From the NCBI RefSeq assembly GCF_003334315.1, contig NZ_QOWR01000102.1: a stretch of DNA of 3,928 nt. One strand, 5' to 3'. This document shows, one piece after another, positions 3,852 through 3,928 of the stretch. A program made the translations under genes and the position numbers. Source of the stretch: Escherichia coli. Lineage in GTDB: Bacteria > Pseudomonadota > Gammaproteobacteria > Enterobacterales > Enterobacteriaceae. Numbering within the stretch: position 1 is the stretch's first letter; the number at the start of each line of letters is the position of its first letter. The notes beneath the pieces are model-generated. The model was not told the DNA's origin. It ran no database searches and was given only the letters and a program-made list of their open reading frames with translations.

Positions 3852-3928
3852 TGTCACGAACGGTGCAATAGTGATCCACACCCAACGCCTGAAATCAGAT
3901 CCAGGGGGTAATCTGCTCTCCTGATTCA
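3852..3928 (+). mobile_element. Probable left terminus of an IS21-family element (IS100-like), continuing beyond the window
   Basis: The sequence from 3852, TGTCACGAACGGTGCAATAGTGATCCACACCCAACGCCTGAAATCAGATCCAGGGGGTAATCTGCTCTCCTGATTCA, begins with the TGT typical of IS21-family ends and contains repeated GATCCA motifs consistent with the multiple terminal repeats of that family. It matches my recollection of the IS100 left end, which continues into a ribosome-binding site and the istA start just beyond the window. This is recalled from memory, not verified. Confidence 0.45.

Follow-up and report, generated by a model that had tools for sequence, protein, structure and literature searches.

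IS100, a member of the IS21 family first described in Yersinia pestis, is also widespread in Escherichia coli, Shigella and Salmonella. Elements of the IS21 family have two genes and terminal inverted repeats composed of the units L1/L2 and R1/R2, with a terminal CA (PMC10122671). By description, IS21 itself and the structurally studied IS5376 share this end structure with IS100 (PMC10122671), as well as the gene pair istA, encoding a DDE transposase, and istB, encoding an AAA+ helper. ISSen3, which is found on Klebsiella and Salmonella plasmids, is also like IS100: it has two GAYCC repeats 24–25 nt apart, a hairpin that covers the ribosome-binding site and the istA ATG at the same distance, and its IstA is 84–90% identical to that of IS100. 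Here, we analysed a 3,928-nucleotide stretch of E. coli DNA (the window), which runs out 77 bases into an element of this kind.

By alignment, positions 3852–3928 on the plus strand (TGTCACGAACGGTGCAATAGTG...CTCCTGATTCA) were 100% identical to positions 1–77 of the full-length, 1954-bp IS100, the remainder of which is cut off by the contig end. All 77 bases matched E. coli copies that carry the PGAP annotation IS100, and 76 of 77 matched the IS100 of Y. pestis CO92 plasmid pPCP1. The single mismatch is base 4 of the element, which is A in pPCP1 but C in the window, C being the common variant in E. coli and Shigella. Among 5426 complete E. coli genomes, 2712 carried the 77-mer, at 5339 places in total (3001 records at ≥99% identity), and it was also present on 1725 plasmids from Escherichia, Yersinia, Salmonella, Shigella and Klebsiella. 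This repetition is far beyond chance, and the sequence is the end of a mobile element. The element is a well-known one in an ordinary setting, and nothing contradicts its identification.

A preliminary description of this DNA had tentatively assigned the same bases to IS100 of the IS21 family, beginning at 3852, and had predicted an istA start within about 10 bp of the window end and an inverted terminus in ..ACA some 1.95 kb further on. The assignment was correct to the base. The start coordinate was exact, since the sequence common to the window and three other IS100 copies with differing flanks begins with TGTCAC at 3852, and relatives with an empty site (below) place it at the same base. 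The two predictions about the DNA downstream hold in full-length reference copies. In annotated copies istA ('IS21-like element IS100 family transposase') has its ATG 10 nt after the last base of the 77-mer and is followed by istB, and the full IS100 of an avian pathogenic E. coli (APEC) plasmid (locus L003, 3867–5820) is 1954 bp long, starting with TGTCAC and ending with GTTGACA. The proteins of the full copy scored above the NCBIfam cut-offs for 'IS21 family transposase' (IstA, 319.8 bits; cut-off 160) and 'IS21-like element helper ATPase IstB' (IstB, 463.6 bits; cut-off 300). The E. coli and Y. pestis pPCP1 elements are both 1954 bp long and identical at 1940 of 1954 positions, with 5-bp duplications and the same istA/istB layout. 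The APEC-plasmid copy has the 5-bp direct repeat TTTAG on both flanks, and the target duplications seen at IS100 copies elsewhere were TTTAG, CATTG and CCCTG, the last of these in pPCP1. In 4 of 5 flanks the duplication ended in G, but we set this apparent preference aside because the sample is too small.

The insertion point could be read directly from relatives that lack the element. One of them (L017, GCA_030716655.1) was identical to window positions 638–3851 over 3214 bp and then continued with AGCCTGTCATACGCG..., the next stretch of IS1; immediately past 3851 it reads AGCCTGTCATACG, which is IS1 sequence without IS100. Two more relatives (L005 and L006) were 98.4% identical over 2245–3851, and their matches likewise ended at 3851, with IS1 beyond. 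The empty target site reads CGTCTTCCGG|AGCCTG, and the uninterrupted motif CGTCTTCCGGAGCCTGTCATACG was present in 9 of the 10 further loci listed with the same module of IS1 relic, ISKpn34 and BREX genes. As these relatives run from 3851 straight into IS1, IS100 inserted after ...TCCGG, between bases 322 and 323 of the K-12 IS1A segment. From the empty-site sequence, TCCGG at 3847–3851 (plus strand) is the predicted left copy of a 5-bp target-site duplication. By analogy with TTTAG, CATTG and CCCTG elsewhere, TCCGG should be repeated at the far end of the element, and the right flank predicted for a simple insertion with a 5-bp duplication is TCCGGAGCCTGTCATACGCG. Because close relatives have the empty site, the insertion can be used as a lineage marker.

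None of the collections searched yielded the right IS100 junction of this copy, and neither of the two open reading frames that would span the predicted right junction (IS100 end, TCCGG and the rest of IS1) is on record. The left IS1/IS100 junction was absent from complete E. coli genomes and PLSDB plasmids, and its exact sequence gave no matches in species-representative genomes or JGI metagenomes. The IS2-like/IS1 junction described below also gave no matches in species-representative genomes. The best matches to the IS1/IS100 junction among complete E. coli genomes and PLSDB came from another insertion of IS100 in IS1, lying 43 bp further into IS1, with a TTTAG duplication, in ColV/APEC plasmids and strain TUM1886 (L003 3501–3866; L004). 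IS100 has therefore entered IS1 on at least two separate occasions, with the elements in the same relative orientation each time.

The target of the insertion is itself part of a nest of IS elements. The IS1 relic (3530–3851, minus strand) consists of the 3' part of insB and an intact IS1 terminus at 3530, and is 94.7% identical to bases 1–322 of the K-12 IS1A segment, numbered along the K-12 plus strand; its 88-residue open reading frame matches the C-terminus of the NCBIfam IS1 transposase. Next to it lies an IS2-like element of the IS3 family (2245–3529, minus strand), 95.3% identical to positions 47–1331 of K-12 IS2A, with open reading frames matching IS2 TnpA and TnpB. It has lost its first 46 bp exactly where the intact IS1 terminus abuts. 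The same IS2-like/IS1 junction is present at 98.4–100% identity in several E. coli genomes. The IS2-like element has in turn replaced the 5' end of a phosphoethanolamine-transferase-like gene (815–2281, minus strand; NCBIfam matches). The product of this reading frame has a sulfatase domain and weak matches to CptA/EptA/MCR-type profiles, well below the cut-offs. The CptA/EptA-type matches begin about 45–55 residues later in the profiles than in the open reading frame; approximately 50 N-terminal residues were lost to the IS2-like insertion, and the annotated start lies inside IS sequence.

The window opens with the 3' end of a P4-type tyrosine integrase gene (1–492, plus strand; NCBIfam integrase domain) belonging to a tRNA-Phe island. 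Directly after the integrase stop, positions 493–545 hold the inverted repeat CCCGGGCAAATGCCCGGG within AATCCT...AGGATT, followed by a run of T, an arrangement resembling an intrinsic terminator. The start of the window has an identical counterpart next to dsbD-cutA-dcuA-aspA in two loci (L019 and L020) and a near-identical one next to yqgA-speC in two others (L017 and L018). From the known K-12 gene order, we take the former to be the pheU side and the latter the pheV side. The same integrase-proximal module occupies pheU in certain strains and pheV in others. Beyond the rest of the IS1 relic, the empty-site relatives carry an ISKpn34 pseudogene, then a 65-residue open reading frame and the genes of a type 1 BREX phage-defence system, including brxL and pglZ (L017 1–7114; L005/L006 7729–12201), and a methyltransferase-domain protein of this system is probably PglX. 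By analogy with these relatives, our best guess is that in the source strain, too, IS100 is followed by an ISKpn34 pseudogene and the type 1 BREX genes. The preliminary description had suggested accessory content downstream, which is plausible by this analogy only; the source assembly was not among the 10 matches listed for the ISKpn34-pseudogene protein.

We therefore regard it as almost certain that 3852–3928 is the start of an IS100 whose target was the insB part of an IS1 relic, within a nested pile of insertion sequences at the tRNA-Phe island. In this reading, the IS2-like element disrupted the phosphoethanolamine-transferase-like gene at the integrase end of the island, and the IS1 relic that received IS100 sits in the truncated end of that element. 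If the mechanism expected for the IS21 family applies, IstA would bind L1/L2 and R1/R2 and synapse the two ends of IS100, IstB, an AAA+ ATPase, would capture the target, and the 3'-CA ends would be joined to the target with a 5-bp stagger.

Why the sequence stops where it does has a more mundane answer. The whole window is the reverse complement of a complete 3928-bp draft contig, QOWR01000102.1 (GCA_003334315.1), so the edge at 3928 is an assembly break and not a biological boundary. The contig overhangs into the IS100 repeat by exactly 77 bp, and 77 bp is a usual final k-mer overlap of short-read de Bruijn assemblers. Most likely, we infer, the contig stops there because the assembler carried one k-mer overlap into a multi-copy repeat that it left unresolved. 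On that reading, there would be two or more IS100 left ends in the source genome. The contig ends 9 nt before the istA start codon, and the reference copies with the same 77 bp have both istA and istB. A full-length IS100 with both genes is likely, though not assured, beyond 3928.

The main competing account accepts the IS100 end and assigns it to a defective copy, such as a solo end, an internally deleted element or one interrupted by another IS, with no intact istA/istB pair to follow. Such copies are not uncommon. Two of those that we opened were defective, one with a 70-bp internal deletion that shortens IstB (L001) and one, on pWR501, split by ISSfl1 at about position 760 (L002). Across complete E. 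coli genomes, any part of IS100 was matched at 6464 places, compared with 5339 for the left end, 5498 for a mid-element 77-mer and 5812 for a right-end 77-mer, hence fragments exist; and the surrounding region is a graveyard of insertion sequences. Against this, inclusion-exclusion on these counts gives at least 3721 places with all three probes, so that at least about 70% of left ends belong to copies retaining the other two probes as well; this bound is a rough one and counts each place as one copy. Moreover, the 77 bp are the majority E. coli sequence at 100% identity, and the 3.2 kb of flanking DNA equal the empty-site allele, also at 100%. Identity to either side of the junction suggests that the insertion is recent and has had little opportunity to decay. 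We therefore judge a defective copy unlikely, while giving it some weight.

Two further readings, that the terminus belongs to a different element and that the junction is artificial, are far less credible. Another IS21-family element that shares the IS100 end could in principle be the source, the obvious candidate being ISSen3, whose IstA is so similar and whose left end is laid out in the same way. However, its leaders differ from the window by substitutions at many of the first 77 bp, whereas the window agrees with the annotated IS100 copies and the Y. pestis element as reported above, and we consider this origin vanishingly improbable. An assembly artefact wrongly joining two repeats would be consistent with the multi-copy sequences on both sides of the junction, and with the failure to find that junction in complete E. 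coli genomes, species-representative genomes and JGI metagenomes. But the break coincides exactly with the first base of IS100, as it must in a genuine insertion, and not with a shared k-mer, and IS1 and IS100 have no common sequence at the junction. The same contig was also reported in two samples, and the independent insertion 43 bp away has a proper 5-bp duplication. An artefact is thus very improbable, only slightly less so than a different element, and a genuine insertion of IS100 into the IS1 relic remains our reading of the junction.

Within the 77 bp, the parts expected of an IS21-family left end could be recognised. The window reads TG at 3852–3853, as do the ends of this family (3'-CA on the transferred strand). 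Positions 3852–3879 (plus strand) form the left terminal inverted repeat, which starts 5'-TG and matches the reverse-complemented right end of IS100 at 21 of 28 positions without gaps; the matches include TGTCA and AGTGATCCAC. Inside it lies the L1 repeat ACGGTGCAATAGTGATCCAC (3860–3879, plus strand; element positions 9–28), the presumed outer IstA-binding site, which recurs twice in the right end, as R1 and R2, at 16/20 and 17/20. The L2 repeat ACGCCTGAAATCAGATCCAG (3885–3904, plus strand; element positions 34–53), the presumed inner site, is a weak match to R1 (14/20), given that among 2000 shuffles scored with the L1 20-mer the 95th percentile was 12 and the highest score 14. We compared the leaders of IS100, ISSen3, ISKpn7, ISPsy4, ISEc57 and a Ralstonia element; the IstA proteins of the other five elements range from 90% down to 43% identity to that of IS100. 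All eight leaders, from these six element types, have two GAYCC motifs 23–25 nt apart and at a conserved distance from the ATG. Exactly two such motifs in every leader compared settle L2.

In IS21, a promoter forms when two ends abut in tandem elements, according to the account in PMC9330008 that cites Reimmann 1989. The ends of IS100 offer a parallel in silico. The right end terminates in a perfect –35 hexamer, TTGACA (L003 5815–5820), and AATAGT at 3867–3872 (plus strand) could serve as the –10-like half of a junction promoter. When the right end was abutted to the left end with a 1–3 bp spacer, a consensus scan returned TTGACA-N16–18-AATAGT, matching at 10 of 12 positions. With the same criteria, the scan found no sigma-70-like promoter within monomeric IS100 or across the IS1/IS100 junction. 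The idea that a fusion promoter drives istA from IS1 was accordingly rejected, as the scan returned no promoter at that junction. Rfam had no match in the window.

The leader between these repeats and istA also folds. In full copies of IS100, GCTCTCCTG-ATT-CAGGAGAGC at element positions 64–84 (L003 3930–3950) forms the sole perfect 9-bp hairpin in the element; of 500 shuffled versions of IS100, 13 had any hairpin of this kind. The 3' arm of the IS100 hairpin is formed by the Shine-Dalgarno sequence of istA, 2 nt ahead of the ATG. From the folding of full copies, positions 3915–3928 of the window (plus strand) hold the 5' arm GCTCTCCTG (3915–3923), the loop ATT and the first two bases of the 3' arm, with the rest of that arm beyond the window. 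A repeat search within 3800–3928 reported nothing, because the 3' arm lies outside the window. In the Y. pestis copy, the closing G-C pair of the hairpin is changed to G-U.

A hairpin was found at the same place in IS100, ISSen3, ISKpn7, ISPsy4, ISEc57 and the Ralstonia IS21-family element. All eight leaders fold into a hairpin of 6–11 bp whose 3' arm ends a few nucleotides from the ATG, with Z-scores of –1.9 to –4.4; in ISKpn7 the 3' arm reaches the first base of the ATG. The stems themselves are unrelated, being CUCUCCUG in IS100, GGCGGCC in ISKpn7 and GUGGUCU in ISEc57. A role as a terminator is unlikely because no U-tract follows the hairpin. Its most likely role would be to keep IstA translation down by blocking the ribosome-binding site. 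We also offer, tentatively, a broader proposal that is more doubtful than probable, namely that in the IS100/ISKpn7/ISPsy4 branch of the IS21 family the hairpin has been conserved as a brake on translation. We found no description of the leader hairpin in the literature searched, a scope to which the classic IS21 papers did not belong, and we claim no novelty for it.

On its own, the IS100 end is of small importance, marking a recent insertion in an IS-riddled corner of the pheU/pheV island. It also carries a practical lesson, in that what lies at the window edge reflects where the assembly broke at a repeat. That divergent relatives of IS100 also have a hairpin over their istA ribosome-binding site could interest those who study the low transposase levels of the IS21 family.
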